This document shows, one piece after another, positions 4,191-55,860 of a stretch of 64,000 nucleotides of DNA; position 1 is the stretch's first letter; every line of letters begins with the position of its first letter. Under the pieces are notes generated by a model. It saw only the letters and a program-made list of their open reading frames with translations. It was not told the origin of the DNA and searched no databases. The DNA lies in assembly GCA_003135635.1 (NCBI GenBank), contig PLCJ01000002.1, positions 44,898 through 108,897 on the forward strand. Direction: 5' to 3'. The stretch is from Candidatus Adlerbacteria bacterium. GTDB lineage: Bacteria; Patescibacteriota; Minisyncoccia; Phycocordibacterales; SBAW01. A program made the translations under genes and the position numbers.

Positions 4191-4206
4191 GCTAGATCAT
4201 GTAAAT

Positions 4207-4237
4207 GCCCCGCCTTACCGCGGGGCGTTTGCGTTTT
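4207..4237 (+). terminator. rho-independent terminator after rnpB
   Basis: Stem GCCCCGC / GCGGGGC with loop CTTACC, followed by GTTTGCGTTTT. Confidence 0.7.
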
Positions 4238-4282
4238 AAAGCAGTTACAGGAAAGTGGGGTATACTCTTTTTATACGAACTA

Positions 4283-18300: not shown

Positions 18301-18945
18301 TTATTTAATATTGAGTCCTTGCACAATAGCCGCAATATCTGCGCGCGCCGCTTTAAGATATGTTTGCGCTGTTTGCAACTGCTTTAACGATTGCTGTCTT
18401 ACCCCAGCTGTTGAAGAAGTTGCCGTAGCATTTTTTGCTGCCGCCGACACTTGAGACGTCATATTAGAGAGCTGGCGGTTGAGATCATTAAGTTGTGCCT
18501 GTATCGTTGTAACTGAAGCACCCGCGGTTTTTGCGTTTACCATGCGTGATGTTAGCGTGGTGGAGAGCGGCACCATAAGGTTAGCAACGGCCTGGAAGCT
18601 ACTCGCAAGAGCGCTTATTTGTGATCCGGAAGGCGCACTTCCAGCAGCGGAAAGGCTCTTTGCGATATTTGTTATTTGCCCATCAATAGATGCAATGTTC
18701 GCGTCAATAAGGCTATTTGATGCTGCAGTGCTAGTATTGGCAGTAGTGCTATTTGTTGCTGCAACGCCATCGGTTACCGCTGCTGATTGCTGTGCCGGAA
18801 CACTTGCACCACCAAACACACCGCTCCACCACAACACACCGATAATAACTACTACCACCACAATTCCTAAAACCCATTTTACAGTCGCTGTCATATAAAA
18901 TATGCTATTAATAAGGGGATGAATTCCACACAAAGCATACCACAA
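18301..18945 (-). CDS. hypothetical membrane-anchored protein, Ala/Ser/Thr-rich
   Basis: One N-terminal TM helix, then a low-complexity coiled-coil-like region. The start is uncertain (an internal Met at the MTATVKW sequence). Confidence 0.45.
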   Translation of the reverse strand: MWYALCGIHPLINSIFYMTATVKWVLGIVVVVVIIGVLWWSGVFGGASVPAQQSAAVTDGVAATNSTTANTSTAASNSLIDANIASIDGQITNIAKSLSAAGSAPSGSQISALASSFQAVANLMVPLSTTLTSRMVNAKTAGASVTTIQAQLNDLNRQLSNMTSQVSAAAKNATATSSTAGVRQQSLKQLQTAQTYLKAARADIAAIVQGLNIK

Positions 18946-20811
18946 TCTTTCATTCTCTGGAAGCGGGTTGTGGATTACACATTCTTTACTGTTTTTATTT
19001 TTTGTGTCCTACTCTTTTTTCTTCCCGCACTCGCAATTGCGCAAACATCGGGAAGCTATTGTCCAGAGTTGCTACTCACCTTTGGCAGTGGTGCTAAAGA
19101 CACGACCACAGGAGGCCAAGTGAGTAGCCTCCAGCAGTTCCTTCTGCACTATGGAGCTGGCACTTCGACTCAATTGGTGACCGGATATTTTGGCATTATT
19201 ACAGAAAGAAATCTCATACAATTTCAGGTACAGCAGCATCTTGTGCCCTCTGGAGTGCTGGATACATTTACTCGCGCGGCAATTGCCATTGTATGCGGCA
19301 CCACGGCGACAACGACGCCTGCGCAAATAGTGCCTTCCGCAACGCTGGATAACAATCCACTTACTTCTCTCCAGGCAAATGTTTTTCTCTCCGGGACTGC
19401 AACACACCTCAATGCTCCACTAAGTATCTTAATTACACACATTAATGCTGGGGGCGGTAGCAATAAGATGTATGAGAACGACGCCATCCCCGTGGTCCAA
19501 AATCGATGGGCTGTGACAGTCTCTCCTCCGCTTTCAGAGGGTGTATACACCGCCACCCTTTCTTCGGGAGACATTTTTCTTGCAAGCAGCACATTAACTA
19601 TAGGACTGAAGTCGCTTCCAACGGTGGAACTTGACACATCGCTTCCTCAATTTGATGTTGTGGACGGACGTCTTATGCGCTTTAAAATAATGGCAAAGCC
19701 AACCGGTGCGATTGGTATCAATCAATTTACGTTTACGATTGCAGCAAATTCGGCAGATGTCACCTCCGTAGCATTGTACGGGTACTCTGATCCGGGGTAT
19801 TCACAGCCGATCGCCAGCACGACCGCCGGCGTGTTGAGTACATCAGTTGTTGATCCAACCCCCTCCGCTCCCGCGGTTATCCTACCCATGTCCCTAGAAA
19901 TTCCTGCCGGCCAAATATACTATTTTGAGCTGGATGGCACCGTCACTCCCTCAGATACTACATATTCAGTCATAACAACCCTACTTGGAGATGCTGCTTC
20001 TACAACTGTAGGAACGGCGACACAGCTTGCTTCAAGTAGCAATTTCATCTGGTCACCCAATACCTACGCTACTTCTTCTGTGACAGATGCCGATTGGACA
20101 AATGGATCCATTGTTTCTGGGTTGCCACAAAGTGGGATTATACAATCGCGCACGAATTCATTTAGTCTCACGCCGACCTGCACACTATCGGCAAGTACAA
20201 GTACAATTGCTTCAAACCAGCCGGTCACACTCAATTGGACAAGCTCCAACGCGACCTATTCAGTGTGGGATGATGGCATGATAAGTGTTGCAGCAGGGGG
20301 CAGAACATTCAATAATATATTCTCGACCCGGACGTTCATACTAAATTTTTATGGCCCGAATGGAACCACAATCTGTTTTACAACAGTTGCTTTCAATCAA
20401 CCAATTTCTCTCGACAAATTCTCCGCTTCTCCTATTTCTGGTACTGTCCCACTTGCAGTGACATTTAATGGTTCTGTAAATAACGCGAAATCTTGTGTAA
20501 GTGCAACGTATACATTTTCTTATGGCGATGGACATACGAATCAAATCAGTGTGCCTGTAAATTCTTGTAAGTCACAATCATTTAAATTAGTGTATACCTA
20601 TCAAAATATTGGAACCTTTGGTGCAGCACTCTATAAGGGCATATTTTCTAGCACTAGCACACCGCAACTTCTACAAATACAATCGATAACGGTGCAATCA
20701 AAAATCACATTTAATATCGACCCGTCATCTGCGATAGCAAACGTTCTCTCTGCATTTGGCGGCCATTTCCTTGCTTGGACTCAATGGCTTTCCCGTATAT
20801 TCAGATGGTAA
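18919..20811 (+). CDS. large secreted protein with N-terminal peptidoglycan-binding (PG_binding_1-like) domain
   Basis: Signal/TM at the N-terminus, PG-binding motif GGQVSSLQQFL...GYFGIITERNLIQFQ, then about 500 aa of Thr/Ser-rich beta-type sequence. Confidence 0.6.
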   Translation: MNSTQSIPQSFILWKRVVDYTFFTVFIFCVLLFFLPALAIAQTSGSYCPELLLTFGSGAKDTTTGGQVSSLQQFLLHYGAGTSTQLVTGYFGIITERNLIQFQVQQHLVPSGVLDTFTRAAIAIVCGTTATTTPAQIVPSATLDNNPLTSLQANVFLSGTATHLNAPLSILITHINAGGGSNKMYENDAIPVVQNRWAVTVSPPLSEGVYTATLSSGDIFLASSTLTIGLKSLPTVELDTSLPQFDVVDGRLMRFKIMAKPTGAIGINQFTFTIAANSADVTSVALYGYSDPGYSQPIASTTAGVLSTSVVDPTPSAPAVILPMSLEIPAGQIYYFELDGTVTPSDTTYSVITTLLGDAASTTVGTATQLASSSNFIWSPNTYATSSVTDADWTNGSIVSGLPQSGIIQSRTNSFSLTPTCTLSASTSTIASNQPVTLNWTSSNATYSVWDDGMISVAAGGRTFNNIFSTRTFILNFYGPNGTTICFTTVAFNQPISLDKFSASPISGTVPLAVTFNGSVNNAKSCVSATYTFSYGDGHTNQISVPVNSCKSQSFKLVYTYQNIGTFGAALYKGIFSSTSTPQLLQIQSITVQSKITFNIDPSSAIANVLSAFGGHFLAWTQWLSRIFRW

Positions 20812-32238: not shown

Positions 32239-32784
32239 ATGGAAGAAAGCTCCTTTCTTAATCCTACAAAAGTAATACGCGCGGCCGGAGTGCATGAGGG
32301 CATGCAGGTCGCTGATTTTGGCGCGGGCTCGGGCTTTTTTACTCGTACTGCTGCTCGCTCCGTTGGAGAATCCGGTGTGGTGTGGGCGGTTGATCTGCAA
32401 CGCGATCTACTTCCGCGCATCAAAAATCTCGCCGCCGCAGAAGGACTTCACAATGTCGAAGTAGTATATGGAGATATCTCCCACGAGGGTGGGAGTAATT
32501 TACCAGCTGAAAAGGTTGATTTCGTCATTGCCGCAAATGTTTTGTTTATGACAGAGCACAAGCAAGAGGCGCTCCGCGAGATTGCTCGCGTCCTAAAAGT
32601 TGGTGGTCACGCCCTCATCATCGATTGGACCAATTCTCACGGCGGCCTGGGACCACACCCTGAGCATGTCATAACTCTTAGTGCTGCAAAGATACTATTT
32701 GAAAAAAACGGTTTTACCGTCTTACACGAAACACCTGCGGGCGCATATCACTGGGGATTTGTTGTTCGCAAAAAAATGCAGTAA
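32239..32784 (+). CDS. class I SAM-dependent methyltransferase
   Basis: Motif I VADFGAGSGFF. 181 aa. Confidence 0.7.
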   Translation: MEESSFLNPTKVIRAAGVHEGMQVADFGAGSGFFTRTAARSVGESGVVWAVDLQRDLLPRIKNLAAAEGLHNVEVVYGDISHEGGSNLPAEKVDFVIAANVLFMTEHKQEALREIARVLKVGGHALIIDWTNSHGGLGPHPEHVITLSAAKILFEKNGFTVLHETPAGAYHWGFVVRKKMQ

Positions 32785-32804: not shown

Positions 32805-34112
32805 ATGAAGCTCTCCACTTTCCAATTTGCAGTTTTGGCTTTCTTTATTCTTTTTACTATTGCCGGTGTGGTTGCCTTCGCTGTTTTTGGAAGGGGCGCT
32901 AACAATACGAGTGTAGGTCCGGTGACCATCTGGGGTACCGTCGATGGACAAACCATGGACACGCTTATTACAACGCTCAGTTCACAAAATAAAATATTTC
33001 AAAACGTTACCTACGTGCAACTAGATCCAACTACGTATAGCGCAACACTCATTAATGCACTTGCCAGTGGGAACAGCCCTGATCTTTTTTTAGTAACTCA
33101 GGATACTGTGTCGAGCTTCGCAAATAAACTTTCTCCCATTCCTTATAATGCAGTCTCTCAAGCATCATATCTCTCCTCATTTATCGATGAAGGACAGCTC
33201 TTTTTGACACCGCAAGGATCTTTGGCGCTTCCTTTTATGATCGATCCCTTAGTCATGTATTGGAATCGAGATCTCTTTGCTTCTGCGGGCATAGCACAGC
33301 CTCCTTCCCATTGGAGCGACTTTCTTTCCCTGACGCCTAAAATCACTTCAATTGATGCACAATCAAACGTTGCGCGCAGTGCGGTTGCGCTTGGTGAGTG
33401 GCAAAACATTACTGATGCAAAAATGATTCTCTCGGCGCTTTTTATGCAGGCGGGAGATCCGATAGTCACCCGGGCGCAAAATGGCGCACTACAGTCAGTA
33501 TTTGGCGCAACACCAAGTGGAGCGGTGTCTAATCCAGCAGCGTCCGTACTTCTTTTTTATACCGAATTTGCAAATCCCTCAAAGACCACCTATTCATGGA
33601 ATCGTTCTCTTCCGCAATCGCGCAATGATTTTGCAGCGGGGAATCTGGCGGTGTACTTTGGACTTGCAAGTGACGATCCGGTATTAACCCAAAGCAATCC
33701 TAATTTGAGTTTTGGGGTTGCAGAGCTTCCTCAAATTCAAAATAATCCCACGCAGCTGACCTTTGGAGAATTAACTGGTATTGCCATTTCACGCATTGCA
33801 GGAAATCCGCAAGGGGCGCTTGCTGTTGCAGAGGCGCTTTCTGCTCCAGCCGCACAGCAACAACTCGCTGCGGAAACTAATTTACCGTCTGTACGACGCA
33901 GTCCTCTCACCGATACTTCAGGAAATGCGACAGAAACTGTTTTTGCACAATCAGCACTTATCGCACACGGTTGGCTCGATCCCGACCCAGCATCTACGGA
34001 CCTACTCTTTCAAGGCATGATAGAATCGATATTAAGCGGCAATCAAGAGCCTGCGGGGGCTGCGAGTGCTGCTTCGCAACAAATGGCTCAGTTGGTGAAT
34101 CCACAACAATGA
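32805..34112 (+). CDS. membrane-anchored extracellular solute-binding protein (SBP_bac_1-like), orphan
   Basis: N-terminal TM anchor and a periplasmic-binding-protein fold pattern. No ABC permease or ATPase genes adjacent. Confidence 0.55.
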   Translation: MKLSTFQFAVLAFFILFTIAGVVAFAVFGRGANNTSVGPVTIWGTVDGQTMDTLITTLSSQNKIFQNVTYVQLDPTTYSATLINALASGNSPDLFLVTQDTVSSFANKLSPIPYNAVSQASYLSSFIDEGQLFLTPQGSLALPFMIDPLVMYWNRDLFASAGIAQPPSHWSDFLSLTPKITSIDAQSNVARSAVALGEWQNITDAKMILSALFMQAGDPIVTRAQNGALQSVFGATPSGAVSNPAASVLLFYTEFANPSKTTYSWNRSLPQSRNDFAAGNLAVYFGLASDDPVLTQSNPNLSFGVAELPQIQNNPTQLTFGELTGIAISRIAGNPQGALAVAEALSAPAAQQQLAAETNLPSVRRSPLTDTSGNATETVFAQSALIAHGWLDPDPASTDLLFQGMIESILSGNQEPAGAASAASQQMAQLVNPQQ

Positions 34113-34513
34113 AAGGATTTTTAAGAATATTTTTCACATCTGCGTTTCTTTTTCTACTCCCTTTTGTTTGTTGGGGACAAAGTGGGGGTTCAAGCGCATC
34201 TCCAATAAATGTCACTCTCCAAAATCCACTAAGCCAAACCACATTTTGTCAGCTCTTTAAACAAATATTAGATGTTGCTCTCGCTCTTGGCACACCGGTC
34301 ATTATTTTTTTTATTGTGCTTGCTGGTTTTAAGTTTGTATGGGCTCGGGGTAATGCAGAAAAACTTACAGAAGCACGAGACAATCTTCGCAATACTATTC
34401 TTGGGATAGTTCTATTTCTGGGGGCATGGGCCCTCACTATGGTGGTGGCGGGAACTATCAATACTCTCAATAGCGCAGGAGGTGGTGGGAGTCCTTTAAT
34501 CGCTTCCTGTTAA
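34109..34513 (+). CDS. pilin-like small protein P1 (signal peptide plus two hydrophobic helices; VirB2/TrbC-like architecture)
   Basis: Start at the internal ATG (MKGFLRIFF) of ORF 33971..34513. Signal peptide, then a helix / charged loop (KLTEARDNLRN) / helix arrangement paralogous to the next three genes. Confidence 0.55.
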   Translation: MKGFLRIFFTSAFLFLLPFVCWGQSGGSSASPINVTLQNPLSQTTFCQLFKQILDVALALGTPVIIFFIVLAGFKFVWARGNAEKLTEARDNLRNTILGIVLFLGAWALTMVVAGTINTLNSAGGGGSPLIASC

Positions 34514-34523
34514 AAACAATCCT

Positions 34524-34763
34524 ATGACACTTGTGAGCCTCGTCTCATATCTTATTGGTCTCATTCAACTCGTAATTCCTGTGCTGACAGGTGCTGCTGT
34601 TGTTCTTTTTATGTTTGGAGTATTCCAATATGTCTATGCAGTCGCCCAAGGGAGTAAGGAGGCGTCAAAAGAGATGATGTGGTGGGGCATGATAGCGCTT
34701 TTTGTCATTTTTTCTTTCTGGGGAATACTCGCCCTTCTTCAGAGGTCACTAAATCTTCCTTAA
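34524..34763 (+). CDS. pilin-like small two-TM protein P2 (paralog)
   Basis: Shares the motif LIQLVIPVL...FGVFQYVYA...GSKEASK...GMIALFVIFSFWGILALL with P1, P3 and P4. Confidence 0.55.
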   Translation: MTLVSLVSYLIGLIQLVIPVLTGAAVVLFMFGVFQYVYAVAQGSKEASKEMMWWGMIALFVIFSFWGILALLQRSLNLP

Positions 34764-34869
34764 TTCCTCTTAAAAAACATTATTTCTAGACATTGGGACT
34801 ATCCACACGGCCCCATTGTTTATAGGCGTCCGTTTGCTACAGTGGGCGTATAACCAAATAAAATTTTTT

Positions 34870-35199
34870 ATGCAATGTTATAGTCAATTCGCGTGGCTTT
34901 GTCAGCTTGTTTCATCTATAGGCTACATCATTAATCTTCTCATTCCCATTATAATCGCCCTGACGGTACTTATATTCTTTTGGGGACTTTTCAAGTATGT
35001 ACTGGGCGGGGGAGATAAGGAAAAAAGTGACGGAAAGGGTATTCTCATTGCGGGCATTATTGCGCTTTTTGTCGAGGTTTCTATCTGGGGGATCATACAT
35101 TTGCTTGCAACCACTGTAGGTATTCCACAAGCTTCTACCGGCGTTGCTCCGTCCGTACAATCGACGACCTCGGCGGTTCCCGGTTCCTTAAACTACTAA
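34870..35199 (+). CDS. pilin-like small two-TM protein P3 (paralog)
   Basis: IINLLIPIIIAL...FWGLFKYVLGGGDKEKSDGKGILIAGIIALFVEVSIWGIIHLL. Start taken at the internal ATG of ORF 34816..35199. Confidence 0.5.
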   Translation: MQCYSQFAWLCQLVSSIGYIINLLIPIIIALTVLIFFWGLFKYVLGGGDKEKSDGKGILIAGIIALFVEVSIWGIIHLLATTVGIPQASTGVAPSVQSTTSAVPGSLNY

Positions 35200-35348
35200 C
35201 CGCATCAACATAAATAGTGTTTATCAAACACCATTTGTATAAGTTATATCCAGCCAGACCTAGTAGAGGGTCCAGAACCGAATCCTCTAATAATATCCAT
35301 GTCTATTTATCTATCCTTGTGATTACAGCCATAGGCTGATTCTTTCTT

Positions 35349-35651
35349 ATGACTTCGGTCGATGCATTTGTTGCTACTATTAACAGCACTATCATTAATC
35401 CTCTCCTCGCACTTCTTTTTGCGGTAGGAGTTTTAGTTTTTATTTACGGCGTAGTTGAATTTTTGCTTAGTATCAATCAGGGAGATAATACCAAAAAAGA
35501 ACAAGGTAAGCAGCACATGTGGCAAGGTCTCCTCGGCATGCTCATTATGGTAAGCGCTCTGTCGATATTCAATCTCTTAGCGAATACTCTTTGCAATAAC
35601 AGTGGGTTATCCCATTGTAAAGCCCTTCCAATTCAGTCAAGTAAGACATAA
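35349..35651 (+). CDS. pilin-like small two-TM protein P4 (paralog)
   Basis: IINPLLALLFAVGVLVFIYGVVEFLL...NTKKEQGKQHMWQGLLGMLIMVSALSIFNLL. Confidence 0.5.
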   Translation: MTSVDAFVATINSTIINPLLALLFAVGVLVFIYGVVEFLLSINQGDNTKKEQGKQHMWQGLLGMLIMVSALSIFNLLANTLCNNSGLSHCKALPIQSSKT

Positions 35652-36089: not shown

Positions 36090-36276
36090 CATAGGCAGAA
36101 AATATGCCAATTGGGTACATTTCTATGTCGAATCAAAAAATACGTTGCAAATGCAATGTATTTTTTGTATCCAATAATGTGCTTACTAGACATGGTTAAC
36201 GGTTGTGGATAGGTGCACACCTAATTTCCCAATAACATAATATACTAGAGTAGTTCGAACATACGTGACGGTGAAT

Positions 36277-36312
36277 GGAGAAACCCCTGCATCTCTGCAG
36301 GGGTCTCCTTTT
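36277..36312 (+). terminator. strong rho-independent terminator about 190 nt downstream of tRNA-Leu(TAA)
   Basis: 13-bp stem GGAGAAACCCCTGCA / TGCAGGGGTCTCC with loop TCTC, followed by TTTT. Confidence 0.7.
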
Positions 36313-36766
36313 GGGGAGTTGAGAACCGGATGCTTCGCTACAACCTCCTGCCATCCGATGACTAATCTTTTCTTGGGAGATAGGATGCGCATCGTTTGAT
36401 TTTCTGATGCCTCTTTTTCACGTCGGGTCACTGTACCTCCTTACGGTTGCCACCCACAGTATCTAGAACCAGTCTAGTTCTAGCGGCTCAGGGTAGACGA
36501 AAGCCATCCTCCTAGCATATGTAGCGAGTTAGCGGCTAATGTTGGCCTGTGACGGTGAAGTCTCAGGTTATTTATATGAAAGCACAAAACTTGTCAAATA
36601 CAAATATCTGTCCTGTGGAAAACCGCGAATGTGACACACTTTTAGGATGACTCATACGGAATTTCTCGCTATATTGTATTAATACTGTGCTCGTTAGATA
36701 ATCAGGCTGTCTTATCCACAAGTAGGGAATGAAAATCGGACGCAAAGATTCTGCAATAGAATCTAC

Positions 36767-37012
36767 CTATCTCCTACTTAGAGCTTGAGCCACGGCACGA
36801 ATATTATGATCCAGAATCGAAATCTGAGATTCGATAGATTTGAGCTTCTTTTCCAGTTTATCAAGCATCGCACCACTGTTATAGTACTCAGTCACTCCAA
36901 CAGGAACTTGACACGTAGCACACTGGATAAAGAGTAGCTTGTATCTAGAGTCTTCAGGTGACTGTTCAACCACCTTAAACCGTGTACCGCTGCAACTTCC
37001 ACACTTAGACAT
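36767..37012 (-). CDS. small zinc-ribbon protein with C-terminal coiled coil (hypothetical)
   Basis: 81 aa, CGSC...CATC pairs and a C-terminal heptad-like segment. The only substantial ORF in a 1.8-kb tract. Confidence 0.4.
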   Translation of the reverse strand: MSKCGSCSGTRFKVVEQSPEDSRYKLLFIQCATCQVPVGVTEYYNSGAMLDKLEKKLKSIESQISILDHNIRAVAQALSRR

Positions 37013-37040
37013 ATATTATTCCGTTATTTAATAATTGTTA

Positions 37041-37402
37041 GTTCCTTGAAATACTAGAGAAGGTTAGATTGACCTCAACGGCTAGCGTACGAAGTACACT
37101 TTGTCGTCGACGGTCACAACATAGTGGATGAGAATGCATCCTCCTATGTGTCCCCGTCGTTTTATCTTCAGCTTGTGAAGATCTTGGCGATCAATCCATG
37201 AAACTGATAGCGACCCTTTATACGTCAGTTTTCGCTTCATGTCCGTAACCTATTTCTTAATGCTTGTAATCTTTAGGAGTCGATCCTTCCTTTGCTCCCC
37301 CTCAAAGTTCAAGAAAGCTCTGAGGGGGAGAGGAAGAGATGACATAACCCTTTAGACAAAAGCAACGGCTCTCCGACTGTCTCCTCTAGTATTTCAAGGA
37401 AC
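37041..37402. repeat. long-range perfect 19-bp inverted repeat (GTTCCTTGAAATACTAGAG at 37041-37059 and its reverse complement at 37384-37402) enclosing 324 nt with internal hairpins
   Basis: Seen directly in the sequence. An internal hairpin CTTCCTTTGCTCCCCCTCAAAG / CTCTGAGGGGGAGAGGAAG lies at about 37287-37340. Confidence 0.6.
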
Positions 37403-37874
37403 CAAAAACCCACTCCTCAACTGATAAGCGTGTGCTTATCAGTCAGGGAATGGGTTCTTTTGAAACTTACTCTTGCTGCCTAATAATCAAACGTACCAGT
37501 TGAGGTTTCCATGCGGACATCCCACTAGGAACATAATGATTATATCGCCTGACCGTATAGGCACAAGCGGTAAATGTGAATAAAGCCAAGAGGATAGGAA
37601 TTCTATCCTCTCCGGGACACCTTCACCCCCATATTGCACTTCGTGAGTAATATACACTTACTGGATACGACTTGATGGTACAGGGCACGAATCAGAAAAG
37701 CCTTTCGTTCAAGCAGCCCTGTTGATATCCTCATCAGAAACCATCTTCTCAATTACTTCAATGTCTTTAATCAATTTCAGAAGCTGGGGATCATTATTGT
37801 GGTACCGGGTTCGAACGTCGTTGACGAGCCGGCACATTGTGAGAAGGATAATTGTATTGTAGCGTGATATTCAT

Positions 37875-45293: not shown

Positions 45294-46769
45294 ATGAACA
45301 CGCGCGCATTATGCGCATGGCTTGTTAGTCTCTGGTTCTTTTTTGTACCGTGTTTAAGCTTTGCTCAAGCACAAAGTACTAGCTCATCAACCTCCGCAAC
45401 CACCACTTCCTTCTGCTCCCTTAGTGTTTCCCCGCAGACCATACCCCAAGGAGCTTCCACTCTTCTCTCTTGGAAAAGTAGTACTACAACAACCTCTGCC
45501 ACGATCTCAGGCATTGGTCCAGTTGCGGCTTCCGGTGCACTGTTTGTCGCACCAACCCAATCGATTACCTTTGTCGGAACTTTCACTGGCCCTTGGGGGA
45601 TGATTCATTGCTCCGTGCCACTTTATGTAACTGCACCCTCTTCCAGTCAATCAGGAAGCGGAACAGGCGTAACAGGCGGAACAGTAGGAGGGGGAAGTGT
45701 GACCTATACTCCACCCACTACGGGAACAACCCCTGCGTATACAGGCACCCCTTCATCTCAAACTCCAGGGTATTCAGGTACTCCAGCCTACTCTGGCACT
45801 CCTGGTTACACTCCACCAATTACCTCCACACAACCCTCCTCTCCAACGACACCCACCTTCAATGCAAGTTCTTTGTCGTACCCCGCATCAACAGGCAACA
45901 CCAGTGGCTCGGGAGCGGTGAGTAGTTTGGTGCCACAGTGCGCGGGCGGTGCTACTGAGTGCACTCTGTGTGACCTTGAAAAACTTATCCAAAACATCAT
46001 CAATTTTGCTCTTGGTCTTTCAATTCCTATCGCTATGCTTCTTTTCGCGATGGCTGGCATTCTTTATTTTACTTCCGGAGCGAACCCCTCTAACACTGAT
46101 CGTGCAAAAAAAATCTTCTCTGCCACATTTATGGGTCTCCTTATTGCTATCTCTGGCTGGCTTCTCGTACAGACAGTGATGAATGTATTTGTTACCGGAA
46201 AAAACTTCACGGACTGGAGCTGGAATAATCTACAATGCTCACCAACGCCATACACACCGACGACCGTTACCCAATGGCTCAATAGTGTTTTGGGATCGGG
46301 ACTGGGTAGTACGTTATCGCCGACGGGGGGAGGTGTTACCAGCGGTTCTGGTGCTCAGTGTGCGAGTGGCAAATCTGCCTGTAGTCCAGCGGCTCTACAG
46401 GCGGTGGGATATACTCCAGCTCAAGCTAATGCAATGTCATGCATTGCTGTGACCGAAAGTAGTGGTAACCCGCAAACACCCAACAGTTCAAGCGGCGCGT
46501 GTGGGACATTTCAGATATTGCAATCCAATTGGAACAATCCTAACTATCATGGACCGGGTTGCAGTAGTGCGACATCGTGCAATGACGCGGCGTGCAATGC
46601 ACAGACAGCGCGGATAATGTTTAATCAGTCAGGGTATCAGCCATGGACAGGAGTATATCCTCCCGGTTCTATTGTGGATGGACAAAATCTGTCAGGACAA
46701 CATTGGAACGCGAACGCAGTCAGTTGTGTCCAGATGTATGATCCAAATACCACTGCACAGCTGCAATGA
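45294..46769 (+). CDS. secreted Thr/Ser/Pro-rich protein fusing a pilin-like two-helix module to a C-terminal SLT-family lytic transglycosylase domain
   Basis: Signal peptide; GTPxYSGTP repeats; central motif LIQNIINFALGLSIPIAMLLFAMAGILYF...KKIFSATFMGLLIAISGWLLVQ paralogous to P1-P4; C-terminal SLT signature CIAVTESSGNPQTPNSSSGACGTFQILQSNW. Confidence 0.6.
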   Translation: MNTRALCAWLVSLWFFFVPCLSFAQAQSTSSSTSATTTSFCSLSVSPQTIPQGASTLLSWKSSTTTTSATISGIGPVAASGALFVAPTQSITFVGTFTGPWGMIHCSVPLYVTAPSSSQSGSGTGVTGGTVGGGSVTYTPPTTGTTPAYTGTPSSQTPGYSGTPAYSGTPGYTPPITSTQPSSPTTPTFNASSLSYPASTGNTSGSGAVSSLVPQCAGGATECTLCDLEKLIQNIINFALGLSIPIAMLLFAMAGILYFTSGANPSNTDRAKKIFSATFMGLLIAISGWLLVQTVMNVFVTGKNFTDWSWNNLQCSPTPYTPTTVTQWLNSVLGSGLGSTLSPTGGGVTSGSGAQCASGKSACSPAALQAVGYTPAQANAMSCIAVTESSGNPQTPNSSSGACGTFQILQSNWNNPNYHGPGCSSATSCNDAACNAQTARIMFNQSGYQPWTGVYPPGSIVDGQNLSGQHWNANAVSCVQMYDPNTTAQLQ

Positions 46770-46782
46770 AACGAAAATTTTT

Positions 46783-47376
46783 ATGAGTAAAACTTTGACA
46801 ATAAGTATAGGAGTACTCATAGTCATTGGACTTGTTGTACTCATTATCTTCAAACTGTTTACCGGTTCAAATAGTCAAGTACCAACAACTAATACCCTCT
46901 ACACGGGAGGTTTAAATACAGAACCTTCTCCCACAGTCTCGCCATCTCTTTCTGGCTCAGGGACGCAAGCCAGTAGTGGTAATACAATTTCTATCGCGGC
47001 CACAAACGGAGGAACCATTCAAGCCAATAATTTTAAAAATGATCCAGCGACCACACAAGATCCGATTAATACCGGTTATTACTACCTTGGCTATCATGTC
47101 TATGGAGGTGTTCCGGATTCAACTTCAACCAACACTCTCCCGTATGTCATAGAATATATTGATACGACTCAATACTTTAATATTGAACTTTTACAAGAAC
47201 CGATAGGAGTTACACGCCAGCAGGCAGAGCAGTATCTCATGGCACACCTCGGTATATCGCAGAGTCAGATGTGTGAACTCAACTATATGGTCAGTGTACC
47301 GTATAGTGTCAATCAATTTTACTCTAGTCGCAGCCTTGGCTTCAGTTTTTGTCCAGGGGCGACAGCACTACAATAA
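46783..47376 (+). CDS. hypothetical membrane-anchored protein
   Basis: Start at the internal ATG (MSKTLTISIGVLIV) of ORF 46672..47376. One N-terminal TM helix. Confidence 0.4.
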   Translation: MSKTLTISIGVLIVIGLVVLIIFKLFTGSNSQVPTTNTLYTGGLNTEPSPTVSPSLSGSGTQASSGNTISIAATNGGTIQANNFKNDPATTQDPINTGYYYLGYHVYGGVPDSTSTNTLPYVIEYIDTTQYFNIELLQEPIGVTRQQAEQYLMAHLGISQSQMCELNYMVSVPYSVNQFYSSRSLGFSFCPGATALQ

Positions 47377-47476
47377 TTAGAAAAATATTCTTTTCTGTCT
47401 TATTTCTAATGATGTTAATTATAAAGTGTGATAAGAAGTTGCACCCTAATGCTATGTAGCGTATAGTTCCGCGTGT

Positions 47477-47635
47477 ATGTCCCAAGATCGTCTAATAAAA
47501 CTTGCATGTAGCACCTGCAAGCGCACCAACTACTGGTCTTCCAAAAATAAGAAAAAAGTTGAGCGTAAGATAGAGCTCAAGAAATTTTGCAAATGGTGCA
47601 GAGCTCAAACTGTACATAAAGAGGCAAAGAAATAG
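47477..47635 (+). CDS. rpmG: 50S ribosomal protein L33 (zinc-ribbon type)
   Basis: Not in the ORF track (52 aa). MSQDRLIKLACSTCKRTNYWSSKNKKKVERKIELKKFCKWCRAQTVHKEAKK, with CxxC...CxxC and the KEAK C-terminus typical of L33. Confidence 0.8.
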   Translation: MSQDRLIKLACSTCKRTNYWSSKNKKKVERKIELKKFCKWCRAQTVHKEAKK

Positions 47636-47651
47636 GATATACTCCTGGCAA

Positions 47652-47722
47652 GGGCCTATAGTTCAATGGTAGAATAGCGGTCTCCAAAACCGTTGATCGA
47701 GGTTCGAATCCTCGTGGGCCCG
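47652..47722 (+). tRNA. tRNA-Trp(CCA)
   Basis: Acceptor GGGCCTA/TGGGCCC, anticodon loop CTCCAAA, T-arm CGAGGTTCGAATCCTCG, discriminator G. Confidence 0.8.
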
Positions 47723-47736
47723 CCCACATAGATACT

Positions 47737-48630
47737 ATGAAAAAAACCGCCCTATTAATTATCCTTTTTTCCCTTCTGGTGATTGCTGCTTTGGTCTATG
47801 GAATAAGCAGAGGCAATATATTTCAACAACCAACCATTACTCCTTCAGGTACTTCTTCTCAAAATACGGTTACCTATTTTTGCACCAACGGCAAAAATAT
47901 TACTGCAACGTTTGCCAGCAGCACCGTTTCTCTTGCCCTGTCTGACGGCCGCTCTTTCATGCTTCCGCAGGTCATGTCAGGCTCTGGTATTCGATATGAA
48001 GAACAACAAGGCACTAGCAGTGATATAACCTTCTCAAATGAAGGGGATAATGCTTTTCTCACGGAAAATAATCAGACCACCTATGATAACTGTCTTGCGG
48101 GTACTACTGCTTCCTATGGCACAAGCACTATATTTACTGATGAGGGCAAGACGTTCAGCTTTGTCTACCCCAGCAATTTTACTGTGGTGGGAGGCGGCGT
48201 CGGCTATACGCAGAGTTGGGCCCAACAGGCAACCACCTCGGGTCTTTTGCTTGCAGTTCTCAATGTACCCCAATCATTTGAGCCTAAAACTAATTTTGCA
48301 GATGCTGCGTTTAGTGTGGGTACGAGTCCTGATCCTCAGGCGGTAAGTTACTGTCTTACTCCCTCTCAGGGCAATGGATCCAAACCGACACAAGTAACTA
48401 TCAACGGAGTGCTCTATACCACATTCACCATCTCAGACGCTGGAGCGGGTAATTTCTATACCACCACTACCTATCGGGTAGTGCGCAACAGCCAGTGTTA
48501 TGCGATTGAATACACCATTCACTCAACTAATATTGGTAACTACCCACCTAGTCTGGGTATTTCTCAGTTTGATCAGCAAAAGATTCAAAATGTGCTTGAT
48601 GGAATAGTGCAGAGCTTCAAGTTTTTGTAA
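47737..48630 (+). CDS. lipoprotein-like secreted protein with N-terminal MliC/PliC-type lysozyme-inhibitor-like domain
   Basis: Signal/TM at the N-terminus; a Cys-bracketed domain YFCTNGKNITATF...SGSGIRYEE...DNC matches the MliC pattern; a C-terminal domain of unknown function follows. Confidence 0.5.
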   Translation: MKKTALLIILFSLLVIAALVYGISRGNIFQQPTITPSGTSSQNTVTYFCTNGKNITATFASSTVSLALSDGRSFMLPQVMSGSGIRYEEQQGTSSDITFSNEGDNAFLTENNQTTYDNCLAGTTASYGTSTIFTDEGKTFSFVYPSNFTVVGGGVGYTQSWAQQATTSGLLLAVLNVPQSFEPKTNFADAAFSVGTSPDPQAVSYCLTPSQGNGSKPTQVTINGVLYTTFTISDAGAGNFYTTTTYRVVRNSQCYAIEYTIHSTNIGNYPPSLGISQFDQQKIQNVLDGIVQSFKFL

Positions 48631-48635
48631 GCAAA

Positions 48636-49526
48636 TTACGAGTCCTGCAAAAATTTCTTTGCATATCTAAGTGCCTCTAATTTATTTTTAATCCACACGA
48701 TCTCAGCATTGCGGCTAAACCAGCGTGTTTGCCTCTTTGCATAGTGCATACTCGCGCGTTCAAGCGCCTCCATACATTCTCTTCGGGTTATGTTTCCTCG
48801 AAGGAGATGAGCAAGTAAGCGATACTCAAACCCCAGCTCTTCCATCCGCCGATAGGAGAGCCCTCGCATATGCAGTTGCTTTGCTTCAGCAACGAGGCTC
48901 TGTTTAAACCGGATAAGGATGCGCTTGTGGATTTTTTTGCGCAGCACTCTTTCATCCGGATTAAGTCCAAGCCAGAGTATCTTGTACTTTTTTTCACTCG
49001 TTGGTTTAGGATTTTTACCTAGCGCTTCAGCAATTTCAAGTGCGCGAATAAGACGACGTTTGTGATGGGGCTCTATGGTTTTCGCGCGCCGCGCATCTTT
49101 ATTTTTGAGAAGTGTGTAGAGCTCTGCGGCACTTTTTTTCTCAAGACGTGCTCGCAGTACATCGTTTGGGGACACATTGGGAAGAACAATTCTTCCCAAT
49201 AGCGCATCAATATATAGTCCCGTACCCCCAACGACAATCGGAACGGCATTCTTCTTTTCAATTATGGCGATAGCGCGTCTTGCGCGCTTGACATAGTCGC
49301 TTACGCTAAATATACGCCTCAACGATGCACCCTGAAGCAGGTGGTGGGGGACTACGCTCTGCTCTTTTTTGCTTATTTTACCGGCCGTAATATTAAATGC
49401 GGTATATACTTGCCGGGAATCTGCAGAAATGATTTCACCCTGAATTTTTTGTGCGAGATATATACCCAGCGCACTTTTGCCCGAAGCATTGGGACCTATG
49501 ATCGCGATAATTTTTGGCTTTTTCAT
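48636..49526 (-). CDS. miaA: tRNA dimethylallyltransferase
   Basis: P-loop GPNASGKS. Start trimmed to the MKKPKIIAI sequence because the ORF-track extension (to 49658) runs through tRNA-Leu(CAA). Confidence 0.85.
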   Translation of the reverse strand: MKKPKIIAIIGPNASGKSALGIYLAQKIQGEIISADSRQVYTAFNITAGKISKKEQSVVPHHLLQGASLRRIFSVSDYVKRARRAIAIIEKKNAVPIVVGGTGLYIDALLGRIVLPNVSPNDVLRARLEKKSAAELYTLLKNKDARRAKTIEPHHKRRLIRALEIAEALGKNPKPTSEKKYKILWLGLNPDERVLRKKIHKRILIRFKQSLVAEAKQLHMRGLSYRRMEELGFEYRLLAHLLRGNITRRECMEALERASMHYAKRQTRWFSRNAEIVWIKNKLEALRYAKKFLQDS

Positions 49527-49536
49527 AGCCCTGTAT

Positions 49537-49619
49537 GGTGCCGGAGGAGGGACTCGAACCCTCACCCCTTGCGGGACGCGATTTTGAGTCGCGCGCGTCT
49601 GCCATTCCGCCACTCCGGC
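49537..49619 (-). tRNA. tRNA-Leu(CAA)
   Basis: Read on the reverse complement: acceptor GCCGGAG/CTCCGGC, anticodon loop CTCAAAA, long variable arm, encoded CCA. Confidence 0.85.
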
Positions 49620-49695
49620 TTTCTTCTTTCCAAGATAGCTCACCCACTGTAATTGCAAAGGGCAATAGCAGTGATTGTTGTGTTAGTATAATCGC

Positions 49696-50640
49696 ATGTC
49701 CGGGTTTTACAATAATGCTATTTTTTGGGTTGAGATAGAAAGAATAAAGCCAAACCCTCTGCAGCCGCGCAAAGAATTTGATGAAGATAAACTGCGCGAT
49801 CTTGCGGGCTCGATTCGCCAATACGGAGTGCTCCAGCCGCTTGTTGTCTCGCGCAATGAAATTCAAAAAGAGGATGGTGGCATTGCAACCGAGTATGAAC
49901 TTATCGCTGGCGAGCGACGTCTGCGCGCATCCAAAATGGCGGGCATTACTCAACTACCAGTCATTATCCGCATGGGATTTGATGATGACAAGACTAAACT
50001 TGAGCTCGCCATTATTGAAAACCTTCAGCGTGAAGACCTCAATCCGATAGATCGTGCTCATGCATTTGACCGACTCGCAAAAGAATTTGGATTCAAACAC
50101 ATTGAGATTGCCGAAAAAATCGGTAAGAGTCGAGAATATGTTTCAAATTCAATCCGTTTATTGCTGATGCCGGGGGATATGCAGGAAGCACTCGCCGCAG
50201 GGAGCATAAGCGAAGGCCATACCCGCCCCATTCTCATGCTTTCAGATCGGCCGGAGGAACAACGCACCCTTTTTCGAGAAATTATACTGAAACGTCTGAC
50301 CGTGCGTGATTCAGAATCAATCGCAAGACGTATAGCATTTGATCGTGTTCGTAAAAAAGAATATCTTTATGCTCCTGAAATCCTTGAGATGGAGCGAGAA
50401 CTCACCGAAGCGCTTGGCACTCGGGTCGCTATAGAACCACGAGAACACGGAGGTAAACTTTCGATTGATTTTATGAACGAGGACGACCTCCGCACTCTTT
50501 TCAATGCACTGCAGACGCGTATTGCCCATCCCTCCCAAGGGAGTGAAGGAGATGAGCGGGAGACTCCTCTTGATGATCGCTCTCAGAATGAAAAAACACT
50601 CGACGAAAATACTTTCGACCCGAGCAACTTTTCTTTATAA
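49696..50640 (+). CDS. parB: ParB/Spo0J-family partition protein
   Basis: ParB N-terminal domain with GVLQPLVV and ELIAGERRLRASKMAG motifs, plus a helix-turn-helix region. Confidence 0.8.
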   Translation: MSGFYNNAIFWVEIERIKPNPLQPRKEFDEDKLRDLAGSIRQYGVLQPLVVSRNEIQKEDGGIATEYELIAGERRLRASKMAGITQLPVIIRMGFDDDKTKLELAIIENLQREDLNPIDRAHAFDRLAKEFGFKHIEIAEKIGKSREYVSNSIRLLLMPGDMQEALAAGSISEGHTRPILMLSDRPEEQRTLFREIILKRLTVRDSESIARRIAFDRVRKKEYLYAPEILEMERELTEALGTRVAIEPREHGGKLSIDFMNEDDLRTLFNALQTRIAHPSQGSEGDERETPLDDRSQNEKTLDENTFDPSNFSL

Positions 50641-52194
50641 TTACTTTGTGTGTTCAAGGGCATTTCTAATGTGTCGGCGTGCCAAAGTGGTTTTGGCGAA
50701 ATCAAGCCATTTCTGCTTCGGTCCAGCAGACTTTTTCGTGATAATTTCAGCGATATCACCATTATGAAGCGCGGTATCAAGCGACACCAACTTGCCGTTA
50801 ACCTTCGCCGCAAAGACGTGATCTCCAATATCAGAATGTATGGCGTAGGCAAAATCAATAGGACTTGATTCCAAAGGCAGATCAACAACATCTCCAGTTG
50901 GTGTGAATACAAAGACCCGGTGAATGAAAATATCGGTTTTAAGTGTCGTCTCGATGTCCGGATCGCTCATCTCATCGCCCAAGTCCGAGAGCCACTCTGG
51001 CGCAGAGGGGGCACCGTAGCGGCTGCGGTTTGAGGAGTGTTTTTTCTCTTCTTTTTTGGAGAGTGAAACTTCTTTTGCATTTCCTCGTCTGAAGCTTGGT
51101 ATCAAGCTTTTAACCCAATCAAAGCTAGACTGTTTTCCCGGGGCTCCATCCTGATCTTTTTCACCGGCATCTTTATACATAACGTGCGCTGCAATACCAT
51201 ACTGGGACTCTTGGTGCATTTCTTCGGTGCGGATCTGCACCTCAACGATGCCCCCATCACCAGAGAAGACAGTGGTGTGTAGGCTCTTGTACCCGTTGGG
51301 CTTCTCAAAAGCAATATAGTCTTTTATTTTATTGGGAAGCGGTTGCCATAACTTATGAACCAGGCCAAGTACACGGTAGCAATCTGCGACGGTAAGTACT
51401 ACCACCCTAATTGCCGCGACATCATGTATTTTTAATATATCGTTTTCTTTACGTTTGAGTTTTTGAGAAAGACTCCATAATCCTTTGACACGAAAATCAG
51501 TGTGAAAATTAGTCATACCACTTTCTGCGAGTTCGCGCTTCAGCATCTTCAGCATCTTCTTGAGTCTTCCGGTAGTCTCATCGGCATGCTCGGAAAGTAG
51601 TTTTTTCGCTGCGGCGTATTCTTGTGGATAGGCATATACAAACGCCAAATCTTCAAGCTCGCGACGAACGGTACCCATACCAAGCCGGTGAGCGATAGCC
51701 GCATATATTTCAATGGTTTCAAGAGCGATGCGCTGCCTCTTCTCGGGAGCGACAAACTGCAAGGTACGCACATTATGAAGACGATCCATGAGTTTAATGA
51801 TGAGTACCCGAGCATCTTTTCCTGTCGCAACAAGGAGTTTCCGGAGACTTTCTCGATGACGCTCCACGCCTCGATATTTAAGATGCCCGAGTTTTGTTAC
51901 CCCTTCAACAAGAAACCGAATTTCTTTTCCAAACTCTTTTTCTATATCCTCTGGGCTTACGCTGGTGTCTTCTATCGAGTCATGCAAAAGTCCCGCCGCA
52001 ATGGTCTTGGCACTCATATCGATCTCTGCCAGACTTTTTGCGGTTGCAACCAGATGAGTGAGGTAGGGCTCTCCAGAGAGGCGTTTATGATCTTTGTGGG
52101 CCTGTGCTGCAAAGGCATACGCTTTTTCAATAAGAGCGATATCCTCAGGCGTAGGCGCACCTTTCAAGGCAATAATCTCCTTAACCTCTGACAT
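50641..52194 (-). CDS. rel: bifunctional (p)ppGpp synthetase/hydrolase (RelA/SpoT family)
   Basis: HD hydrolase domain (HDSIEDT), RelA/SpoT synthetase domain, and a C-terminal TGS domain. Confidence 0.85.
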   Translation of the reverse strand: MSEVKEIIALKGAPTPEDIALIEKAYAFAAQAHKDHKRLSGEPYLTHLVATAKSLAEIDMSAKTIAAGLLHDSIEDTSVSPEDIEKEFGKEIRFLVEGVTKLGHLKYRGVERHRESLRKLLVATGKDARVLIIKLMDRLHNVRTLQFVAPEKRQRIALETIEIYAAIAHRLGMGTVRRELEDLAFVYAYPQEYAAAKKLLSEHADETTGRLKKMLKMLKRELAESGMTNFHTDFRVKGLWSLSQKLKRKENDILKIHDVAAIRVVVLTVADCYRVLGLVHKLWQPLPNKIKDYIAFEKPNGYKSLHTTVFSGDGGIVEVQIRTEEMHQESQYGIAAHVMYKDAGEKDQDGAPGKQSSFDWVKSLIPSFRRGNAKEVSLSKKEEKKHSSNRSRYGAPSAPEWLSDLGDEMSDPDIETTLKTDIFIHRVFVFTPTGDVVDLPLESSPIDFAYAIHSDIGDHVFAAKVNGKLVSLDTALHNGDIAEIITKKSAGPKQKWLDFAKTTLARRHIRNALEHTK

Positions 52195-52226
52195 ACAACG
52201 AGTGTACTCCGCTGGTCTCCTGCGGT

Positions 52227-54434: not shown

Positions 54435-54533
54435 ATAGGCGGTGTATCAATTCATACAATGGATTGGTAAAGAGTGCAAAACATCTCGCGCAGAGCTTTT
54501 CGAGATAGTTGATCTGCGGTATGCTTCTTGTGC

Positions 54534-55820: not shown

Positions 55821-55860
55821 TCTTCCGAGCGTCACTATTTTTGCTTGTATGATGTAGAGC

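Follow-up and report, generated by a model that had tools for sequence, protein, structure and literature searches.

Which function do four small membrane proteins serve that are encoded in a row directly downstream of an orphan solute-binding protein (SBP), and which machinery, if any, do they work with? The question arises in Patescibacteria, a very large, mostly uncultured group living attached to other microbes, in which a type IV secretion system (T4SS) and an unusual series of pilins are essential in the sole species tested. Here, we present an analysis of this array, P1-P4, within a 64,000-nucleotide stretch of a Paceibacteria-type (Adlerbacteria-like) genome; this whole stretch is referred to as the window. 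Altogether, we consider it probable that P1-P4 are VirB2-like pilins, encoded as an array of paralogs on the chromosome and belonging to PF18895, a family specific to Patescibacteria, and that they would contribute to a T4SS pilus. The array leaves the picture of T4SS and pilin essentiality unchanged and adds three leads to it.

The original prediction had described four consecutive small ORFs of 134, 79, ~109, and 100 aa. All four are present at those places on the + strand, and public gene calls for the source contig (ENA ERZ19973380, 340,147 bp) give identical products of 134, 79, 109, and 100 aa. The array spans positions 34109-35651 of the window, with its four genes on one strand, and the features relevant here are the following:

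32239-32784, + strand: class I SAM-dependent methyltransferase (181 aa; precomputed Pfam), invariant neighbor upstream of the SBP
32805-34112, + strand: SBP (SBP_bac_1, membrane-anchored, 435 aa; Pfam and anchor)
34109-34513, + strand: P1, T4SS_pilin family (134 aa), predicted Sec signal peptide and two-helix hairpin; first-position orthogroup
34524-34763, + strand: P2, T4SS_pilin-family paralog (79 aa), two helices, no signal peptide
34870-35199, + strand: P3, T4SS_pilin-family paralog (109 aa), two helices and a Ser/Thr/Pro-rich tail; penultimate-position orthogroup
35349-35651, + strand: P4, T4SS_pilin-family paralog (100 aa), two helices; last-position orthogroup
45294-46769, + strand: fifth copy of the module in a fused protein (491 aa) with signal peptide, Ser/Thr/Pro-rich spacer, T4SS_pilin hairpin, and SLT_3

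The methyltransferase, the SBP, and P1, P2, P3, and P4 follow each other in this order in a tightly packed same-strand string, and the SBP stop codon overlaps the ATG of P1 (ATGA). Orthologs of the P proteins with 36-40% identity are present in dozens of species, arguing that these genes are under selection. A scan of 32.0-36.2 kb for promoters and terminators returned sites at no more than the number expected by chance, while Rfam identified four tRNAs and nothing else in the gene-poor region at 35.6-38.0 kb.

Family membership and architecture of P1-P4

P1, P3, and P4 score 36.1, 27.5, and 28.1 bits, respectively, against PF18895 (T4SS_pilin), all above the gathering cut-off of 26.6 bits. 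P2 falls under this cut-off (15.5 bits) and matches a local family HMM built from 117 relatives with 81.7 bits (E 1e-23); 114 of these relatives match PF18895. Thus, the proposal that these proteins are T4SS-type pilins as in CPR genomes is borne out at the level of the T4SS_pilin family, while the likeness to VirB2/TrbC that was part of the same proposal holds only in part, direct homology to the Gram-negative proteins being weak. Against PF04956 (VirB2/TrbC), P1 reaches 17.7 bits (E 0.004; cut-off, 27.9), P2-P4 have no match, and only 2/117 relatives match at E<0.01. In hhalign comparisons with eight annotated plasmid VirB2/TrbC proteins, a profile of P1 orthologs was aligned over 48 columns with the hairpins in register (probability 47%, E 2e-4), while a P3-type profile gave a probability of 0.6%. 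Judged from these profiles, the link to VirB2/TrbC appears weak and is seen for the P1 type only. Sequence searches of solved structures (PDB) with three family profiles gave only marginal matches (FliL, 0.018; the pKM101 pilus subunit TraM, 0.042). The weak homology to classical VirB2/TrbC and the marginal PDB-sequence and Foldseek results count against the T4SS-pilin reading.

The best-matching NCBIfam model is not a Gram-negative VirB2 but NF045849, a pilin-like conjugation protein of Mycoplasma ICEs. P1 and P4 score 23.3 and 23.7 bits (both E about 3e-5) and P2 scores 15.5 bits, all below the curated cut-off of 40 bits. Because 93 of the 117 family members match NF045849 at E<0.01, yet the P proteins score below the cut-off, we conclude that the two families are related and that the P proteins are not members of NF045849. 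The match suggests that these pilins may derive with a monoderm-type T4SS and not from Gram-negative systems.

Based on BLASTP, P2 and P3 share 38% identity (E 4e-13), P3 and P4 33% (E 4e-8), and P2 and P4 28% (E 6e-8). P1 is more distant, with E values of 2e-5 for its match to the fused copy at 45.3 kb and of 0.009 for P3; pairwise identity within the array is 15-38%. The P1-ortholog profile and the P2-P4-type family profile align with an hhalign probability of 98.9% (E 2e-17). By sequence comparison, P1-P4 are paralogous beyond chance, and the shared motif described for them agrees with the consensus of the 117 family members (LINLxxPIVVALALLxFFWGLAxYILxAGxExxKxxGxxIMIWGIxALFVMVSIWGI).

The predicted two-helix architecture was recovered by hydropathy analysis, which revealed two long hydrophobic helices in each of the four proteins; the helices of each hairpin are joined by a short Lys/Glu/Gly-rich loop. 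The signal peptide claimed for P1 corresponds to an additional N-terminal signal-like segment in P1 alone, giving this protein three hydrophobic segments. An AlphaFold2 model of P3, addressing the suggested structure prediction of one paralog, is a hairpin with helices at 5-45 and 49-82 and a disordered tail (pLDDT 80.9). Foldseek returned no PDB match below E 0.5, and the structure searches yielded mostly generic hairpins; we attribute the lack of a significant match to the helical hairpin being a generic fold.

The claim that the same module reappears fused to a lytic transglycosylase at 45.3 kb also stands. The fused protein (45294-46769) matches PF18895 with 30.5 bits and the lysozyme-like family PF18896 (SLT_3) with 26.0 bits, just below the 27-bit cut-off. 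The hairpin of this protein shares 24% identity with P1 (E 2e-5), and its transglycosylase matches in PHROGs are all sub-threshold. Elsewhere in the window, an MliC-domain protein is encoded near the lysozyme-like fusion.

These observations bear on two alternatives to a pilin function. The first is that the PF18895 hairpin is a non-polymerizing two-helix membrane anchor or small structural protein, with "pilin" being a context-based label. The generic hairpins found in structure searches, the weak VirB2 homology, the 491-aa protein at 45.3 kb, in which such a hairpin is attached to a lysozyme-like domain, and the lack of any reported filament in the literature are in line with this idea. However, 3-7 positionally orthologous free-standing genes kept across a bacterial class, as well as essentiality inside a T4SS cluster (see below), are unexpected for a plain anchor, and the relationship with conjugation proteins of ICEs and plasmids is a specific one; we therefore regard a mere anchor as very unlikely. 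In the second alternative, P1-P4 would belong to a prophage or toxin system as holin-like, bacteriocin-like, or lysis-cassette peptides; the original prediction had also raised holin- and bacteriocin-like functions. The small size of the proteins and their two helices, together with the lysozyme-like fusion and the nearby MliC-domain protein, would fit such peptides. The suggested HMM comparison with pilin and holin families, however, gave matches to T4SS_pilin and to no holin family; no holin or bacteriocin family was matched in Pfam, NCBIfam, or PHROGs, and a scan of viral contigs using only the family alignment and two peptide patterns detected no relatives. Moreover, the array has no phage genes beside it and lies in a housekeeping context that is syntenic across species. 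The profile, viral-contig, and gene-context results largely refute a holin or phage lysis role, which we consider extremely improbable.

T4SS machinery and the conserved neighborhood

Using precomputed annotations and profiles, we found no match to the VirB4, VirD4, and VirB6 families between window coordinates -8 kb and +73 kb (record positions 221,971-303,531 of the 340-kb contig, i.e., the window with 10 kb annotated on each side). The reported absence of these genes from the window, therefore, extends across the 10 kb beyond either end. The window ORFs of at least 500 aa all encode housekeeping, PG-binding, or TPR proteins or the pilin-lysozyme fusion. Similarly, the array has no virB1, virB3, or virB4 neighbors in the range from -8 kb to +73 kb, while each of the eight true virB2 genes retrieved for comparison lies between virB3 and a gene for a lytic transglycosylase or a T4SS component. 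In loci from 80 related species, the 10 kb on either side of the array are free of VirB4-like ORFs; among the ORFs of at least 400 aa, the search for T4SS ATPases yielded only one T4CP-like protein (locus L054), besides an ABC ATPase and an SMC-like protein. The missing machinery, both here and in the 80 relatives with their single T4CP-like gene, argues against the T4SS-pilin reading. According to the literature, VirB4-driven T4SS genes are located near dnaA/dnaN in many Paceibacteria.

The proteins encoded upstream of the array are of recognizable types. The SBP matches SBP_bac_1 (3e-17) and SBP_bac_8 (1e-15) in Pfam, and its best solved relative is MBP1 (4r9f; 2e-17), followed by other sugar-binding proteins; by homology, it is of a sugar/CUT1-like type. 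Of 76 SBP orthologs, 73 carry a hydrophobic anchor at the N-terminus. As noted in the original prediction, this SBP is an orphan: no ABC permease or ATPase adjoins it in the window or in the syntenic loci read, and the sole ABC genes seen are exporter-type fusions past the right end of the window. The methyltransferase has precomputed Pfam matches to Methyltransf_11/25/31 and Ubie_methyltran and only generic, sub-threshold matches in NCBIfam.

The trio of methyltransferase, SBP, and pilin array recurs throughout the 80 loci fetched from related Paceibacteria-type species, and two family members on long contigs have the SBP-linked layout again. In 79 of these loci, a methyltransferase homolog immediately precedes the SBP; the remaining locus ends inside the SBP. 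The distance between these two genes is mostly ≤140 bp (maximum, ~300), and the gaps between the SBP and the first pilin gene are mostly -4 to +26 bp. This core is unsplit in all related loci, while insertions vary its distance to gyrA (0.5-6.6 kb) and to rbfA/infB (3-9 kb). Genes that have been inserted 3' of the array or in the interval from gyrA to the methyltransferase are not T4SS parts; their products include weak SPFH/Band_7-like membrane proteins and assorted enzymes. A full-text literature search identified no paper that links an SBP or methyltransferase to a pilin array; as fixed operon partners of such an array, the two proteins are apparently previously undescribed.

Positions within the array are also conserved. 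The best cross-species match of P3 is the penultimate array gene in 48/66 loci, and that of P4 is the last array gene in 60/64 loci. Among four-gene arrays, first-position proteins have three hydrophobic segments in 23 of 27 cases, with AxA-type cleavage sites among those listed, while last-position proteins have exactly two in 27/27. This orthology of positions across species argues that the paralogs are old and specialized rather than recently amplified. Fused two- and three-module family proteins exist among the relatives.

Could the array be independent of type IV secretion? In this case, the four proteins would assemble into a fixed hetero-oligomeric complex in the membrane that cooperates with the orphan SBP, e.g., as the membrane part of a device for sensing or taking up glycans, and the methyltransferase would be a third partner. 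The never-split core at variable distances from gyrA and rbfA/infB, the short SBP-pilin gaps, the orthologous positions, which suggest distinct subunits, the fused multi-module proteins, the SBP without an adjoining permease, and the lack of a T4SS ATPase close by in the window, with one T4CP-like gene among 80 relatives, are all compatible with such a complex. However, the surrounding block from hisS to clpB, a housekeeping context, is itself wholly syntenic across species, and conserved adjacency alone is, therefore, weak evidence of a functional link. Moreover, the family occurs within the essential Southlakia epibionticum T4SS cluster and near virB4 in 1,135 assemblies, the nearest curated relatives are conjugation-system proteins, and no energizing component of such a complex is evident. 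We consider this alternative unlikely. Decidedly unlikely, in our view, is its more specific form, in which the methyltransferase-SBP-pilin string in Paceibacteria would be a self-contained, ancient, VirB4-independent surface module, with four to seven specialized two-helix subunits building a membrane or filament structure coupled to the sugar-type SBP to sense, bind, or take up host glycans. If true, such a module would put the conjugative-pilin fold to a new use and give an SBP a new kind of partner.

Proposed function and comparison with known systems

We favor the reading of P1-P4 as VirB2-like pilins. According to this model, each of the four proteins, once inserted in the cytoplasmic membrane, would have its loop on the cytoplasmic side and both termini outside; a T4SS driven by VirB4 and encoded elsewhere in the genome would extract the proteins from the membrane and assemble them into a pilus or an envelope-spanning conduit for host-cell contact. 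The array members would be non-redundant, e.g., a first subunit that is most similar to VirB2 together with accessory or minor subunits, and the fused copy at 45.3 kb may tether a peptidoglycan hydrolase, i.e., a VirB1-like job, to a similar hairpin. Based on gene order, the simplest reading of the co-transcribed sugar-type SBP is that it could serve as a surface glycan-binding or sensing partner. The invariant coupling makes the SBP and the methyltransferase concrete partner candidates.

NF045849 (Mbov_0395/MMCAP2_0565 of Mycoplasma ICEs) and P1-P4 share their small size, their two helices, and an assignment to T4SSs of wall-less or monoderm bacteria; however, the Mycoplasma copies are located inside mobile elements beside transfer genes, while P1-P4 are chromosomal and remote from any ATPase. 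The differences from VirB2/TrbC proteins (PF04956; T-pilus, 8exh; R388 TrwL, 8s6h; pKM101 TraM, 8cw4) are larger: P1-P4 are below the Pfam cut-off, the P2-P4 type has no detectable profile similarity, virB1, virB3, and virB4 do not neighbor the array, and, instead of a single major pilin, several fixed paralogs are encoded, in a host reported to be monoderm. Orphan SBPs without their own permease are tied to conjugation or T4SSs for signal capture, as in the cases of PrgZ (pCF10) and ChvE (Agrobacterium). PrgZ belongs to the peptide-binding family 5 proteins and ChvE to the type I periplasmic binding proteins, whereas the SBP described here is of the sugar-type SBP_bac_1 family, and a comparable signaling role of it would be hypothetical.

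The closest counterparts are the published arrays of Patescibacteria, which comprise 2-11 divergent VirB2-like pilins in tandem with a mean identity of 25% (Quinonero-Coronel et al. 2025, PMC12102498). Among them, a six-gene array inside the T4SS cluster of S. epibionticum is essential (Wang et al. 2023, PMC10633639), and a published survey places the PF18895-type family near virB4 in 1,135 assemblies. A pilus built of PF18895 proteins has not been reported for any organism, which also counts against the T4SS-pilin reading. VirB2-like arrays are defined as at least two pilin genes, in tandem or one gene apart, with low mutual identity (PMC12102498); P1-P4 are four consecutive genes with 15-38% pairwise identity. 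Because such arrays have already been published, the locus is a further example of this known type. Consistently, it belongs to the same phylum and protein family (with scores above the Pfam cut-off) and has in common with them the tandem organization of divergent paralogs (15-38% identity here versus a mean of 25%), and a chromosomal location with no relaxase close by. Unlike them, the array described here lies away from any virB4 cluster, sits in a housekeeping block, is locked to a methyltransferase and a sugar-type SBP, and has gene positions that are orthologous across species. This class-wide positional orthology argues for fixed structural roles of the paralogs, as opposed to the idea of variation and host range put forward for the published arrays (PMC12102498).

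Family placement and paralogy of the array

The plus strand carries a string of tightly packed genes at 32.2-35.7 kb, with gyrA just upstream and tRNA genes, rbfA, and infB downstream:

32239-32784, +, SAM-dependent methyltransferase, 181 aa
32805-34112, +, solute-binding protein (SBP), 435 aa, N-terminal membrane anchor
34109-34513, +, P1, 134 aa
34524-34763, +, P2, 79 aa
34870-35199, +, P3, 109 aa
35349-35651, +, P4, 100 aa

The SBP stop codon overlaps the P1 start codon (ATGA), and P1 and P2 are spaced by 10 bp. The public gene calls for the source contig (ENA ERZ19973380; 340,147 bp) give identical P1-P4 products, each with two long hydrophobic helices. Based on BLASTP, P2, P3, and P4 are 28-38% identical to each other (E 4e-13 to 6e-8). 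P1 is more divergent and matches the hairpin of a 491-aa protein (45294-46769; E 2e-5); a profile of P1 orthologs aligns with a P2-P4-type profile with an hhalign probability of 98.9% (E 2e-17). Gene calls, matches, and helices thus confirm the array of four genes, and the paralogy is real. Only P1 has an additional N-terminal signal-like segment. In an AlphaFold2 model of P3, with 117 relatives as input, residues 5-45 and 49-82 form helices followed by a disordered tail (mean pLDDT 80.9).

P1, P3, and P4 match PF18895 (T4SS_pilin) with 36.1, 27.5, and 28.1 bits, respectively, above the cut-off of 26.6, while P2 is below it (15.5 bits); these matches support the original reading of the proteins as T4SS/VirB2-like pilins. 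Searching 5.8 billion proteins with a profile identified 284 relatives, nearly all with PF18895 and, where named by NCBI, 'pilin' of Patescibacteria or Paceibacterota; when 1.84 billion cluster representatives were scanned exhaustively with an HMM, 20,896 matched at E<=1e-3. Thus, the PF18895-type family is large and already catalogued. Using PF18895 among their Pfam models, Quinonero-Coronel et al. 2025 (PMC12102498) described VirB2-like pilins in 1,948 VirB4-containing Patescibacteria assemblies, near virB4 in 1,135 of them, and tandem arrays (n=441) that comprise 2-11 pilin genes and have a mean identity of 25%. In Southlakia epibionticum, predicted pilins encoded in series within the T4SS cluster are essential (Wang et al. 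2023, PMC10633639); a 2025 review repeats this essentiality and states that no pilus has been demonstrated so far. The array in the window is, therefore, an instance of an already known type.

Machinery and surrounding genes

No match to the VirB4, VirD4, or VirB6 families was found between positions 221,971 and 303,531 of the source contig, i.e., in the window and ~10 kb on each side; accordingly, the earlier observation that the window lacks these genes holds and extends ~10 kb past each end. Among 80 related loci, a VirB4-like ORF lies within 10 kb of the array in none, and a coupling-protein-like gene is near the array in one (L054 13824-15560; TrwB_AAD_bind 1e-8, TraG-D_C). Across the 80 arrays, this gene, ~7.5 kb downstream of the SBP gene of that locus, is the sole T4SS-type ATPase gene observed nearby.

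We consider it likely that P1-P4 are one of the VirB2-like pilin arrays known from Patescibacteria, and that a T4SS whose genes lie elsewhere assembles the products. These would then form a pilus in a VirB4-dependent manner, and the SBP might have a role. The two-helix architecture could also belong to plain membrane anchors or to holin or lysis proteins; we regard the former as improbable and the latter as highly improbable, and both as less likely than a pilin array or the self-contained module discussed below.

The rest of the window has housekeeping genes (gyrA, infB, clpB, topA, relA, leuS, lepA, murJ, ftsZ, 15 tRNAs, and RNase P RNA). Paceibacteria virB4 is commonly near dnaA/dnaN (PMC12102498); neither was seen within the 84 kb covered. 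Within 48000-56000, the cumulative GC skew has its minimum at ~50-54 kb, near parB (49696-50640), relA, and topA. Between tRNA-Leu and tRNA-Lys, a gene-poor stretch (36100-37870), in which Rfam detects only tRNA, has an 81-aa frame (36767-37012, minus strand; phage family phrog_9414, E 1e-8) as its only notable ORF. In several relatives, the equivalent interval encodes two membrane proteins with weak similarity to SPFH/Band_7, of which there is no trace in this stretch. Large, envelope-type proteins are encoded at 18919-20811 (630 aa; PG_binding_1 its only domain) and 4205-6649 (814 aa; C-terminal TPR repeats, no other match). At 62499-63383 and past the right end of the window (L010 6746-9911), a gene for a sortase with a peptidoglycan-binding domain adjoins four consecutive genes (339, 103, 136, and 342 aa) without family matches, which may encode sortase substrates or another surface structure.

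Conserved partner genes and positional orthology

A one-genome-per-species scan, with the SBP aligned to three orthologs as query, identified 212 relatives; 80 of the loci were retained. Where titles are informative, these loci belong to Paceibacteria-type groups. Adlerbacteria are closest (60% identity), and Kaiser-, Nomura-, Wolfe-, Zambryskii-, Taylor-, and Tagabacteria come next. Many syntenic records are titled 'uncultured Candidatus Saccharibacteria' (L016, L020, L021, L023-L026, and others); because their gene order is of the Paceibacteria type and their SBPs are 40-57% identical to those of Adlerbacteria-like genomes, these titles seem to be generic or mistaken.

The methyltransferase gene is directly upstream of the SBP gene in 79 of the 80 loci, and the remaining locus ends inside the SBP gene. 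Based on a local family HMM, pilin genes directly follow the SBP gene on the same strand in every locus with enough downstream DNA, mostly at -4 to +26 bp from its stop codon. Complete arrays (n=60) mostly have 3-7 genes, most commonly four, and five more family members on long contigs have the same layout. Due to unrelated insertions, the distance of the string varies from 0.5 to 6.6 kb to gyrA and from 3 to 9 kb to rbfA/infB; the methyltransferase-SBP-array core is split in none of the related loci. In the main rival explanation, this conserved string would encode a self-contained membrane or surface module; we judge this to be rather unlikely.

The SBP belongs to a sugar-binding branch (best solved relative 4r9f MBP1 at 2e-17, then other sugar binders), and 73 of 76 orthologs have an N-terminal membrane anchor; matches of the methyltransferase are limited to generic class I models. 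A full-text literature search found no paper combining Patescibacteria, VirB2, and solute-binding, and the 2025 T4SS paper (PMC12102498) does not mention a solute- or substrate-binding protein.

Across species, P4 best matches the last array gene in 60/64 loci, P3 the penultimate gene in 48/66, and P1 the fourth gene from the array end in 33/62. A position-by-position matrix of 24 complete four-gene arrays is strongly diagonal (first position, 391/500; last, 523/552), with the two middle positions partly interchangeable. In four-gene arrays, first-position proteins usually have a signal peptide, with three hydrophobic segments in 23/27, while last-position proteins never have one. Together, positional orthology and the position-specific signal peptide indicate that the paralogs are ancient and specialised, and distinct structural roles would fit better than recent amplification for variability. 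In the likely reading as a T4SS-assembled pilin array, the first member, which has the signal peptide, would be the most VirB2-like, and the others would be accessory subunits. The interest of this locus lies in its positional orthology and in the conserved partner genes of the operon, not in the array itself.

In some relatives, two or three modules are fused in one polypeptide (200-370 aa; L079 10375-11403, proteins P0121-P0130, and others); a three-hairpin fusion would be a six-helix protein made up of three 'pilins', an unusual form for a subunit that polymerises. A fusion is also present in the window:

45294-46769, pilin-hairpin/SLT_3 fusion, 491 aa, PF18895 30.5 bits

It has a signal peptide and a Ser/Thr/Pro-rich spacer of ~200 aa; its SLT_3 (lysozyme-like) score is 26.0 bits, under the cut-off of 27. 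Genes for a 197-aa protein without family match and a 297-aa MliC (lysozyme-inhibitor)-domain protein follow (45294-48630), and the lysozyme-like fusion and the MliC-domain protein may be a hydrolase/inhibitor pair.

Relation to VirB2 and monoderm conjugation proteins

All eight annotated VirB2/TrbC genes of conjugative plasmids used for comparison lie between virB3 and a gene for either a lytic transglycosylase or a T4SS protein. A P3-type family profile has no similarity to these eight proteins (probability 0.6%); a profile of P1 orthologs aligns with them hairpin on hairpin over 48 columns (E 2e-4, probability 47%). Of the 117 relatives, only two match PF04956, while 93 match NF045849 (best E 1.6e-9), the NCBIfam model for a pilin-like conjugal transfer protein found in Mycoplasma ICEs. 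The conjugation membrane protein pLS20_p028 is matched by 20 of them; P1 and P4 match NF045849 at E ~3e-5, under its cut-off. As judged by these profiles, the link to monoderm conjugation systems is clearer than that to classical VirB2. The NF045849 and pLS20_p028 matches agree with the published VirB4 phylogeny, in which the Patescibacteria T4SS groups with the Firmicutes/Tenericutes class, and suggest that the pilins need not come from Gram-negative systems.
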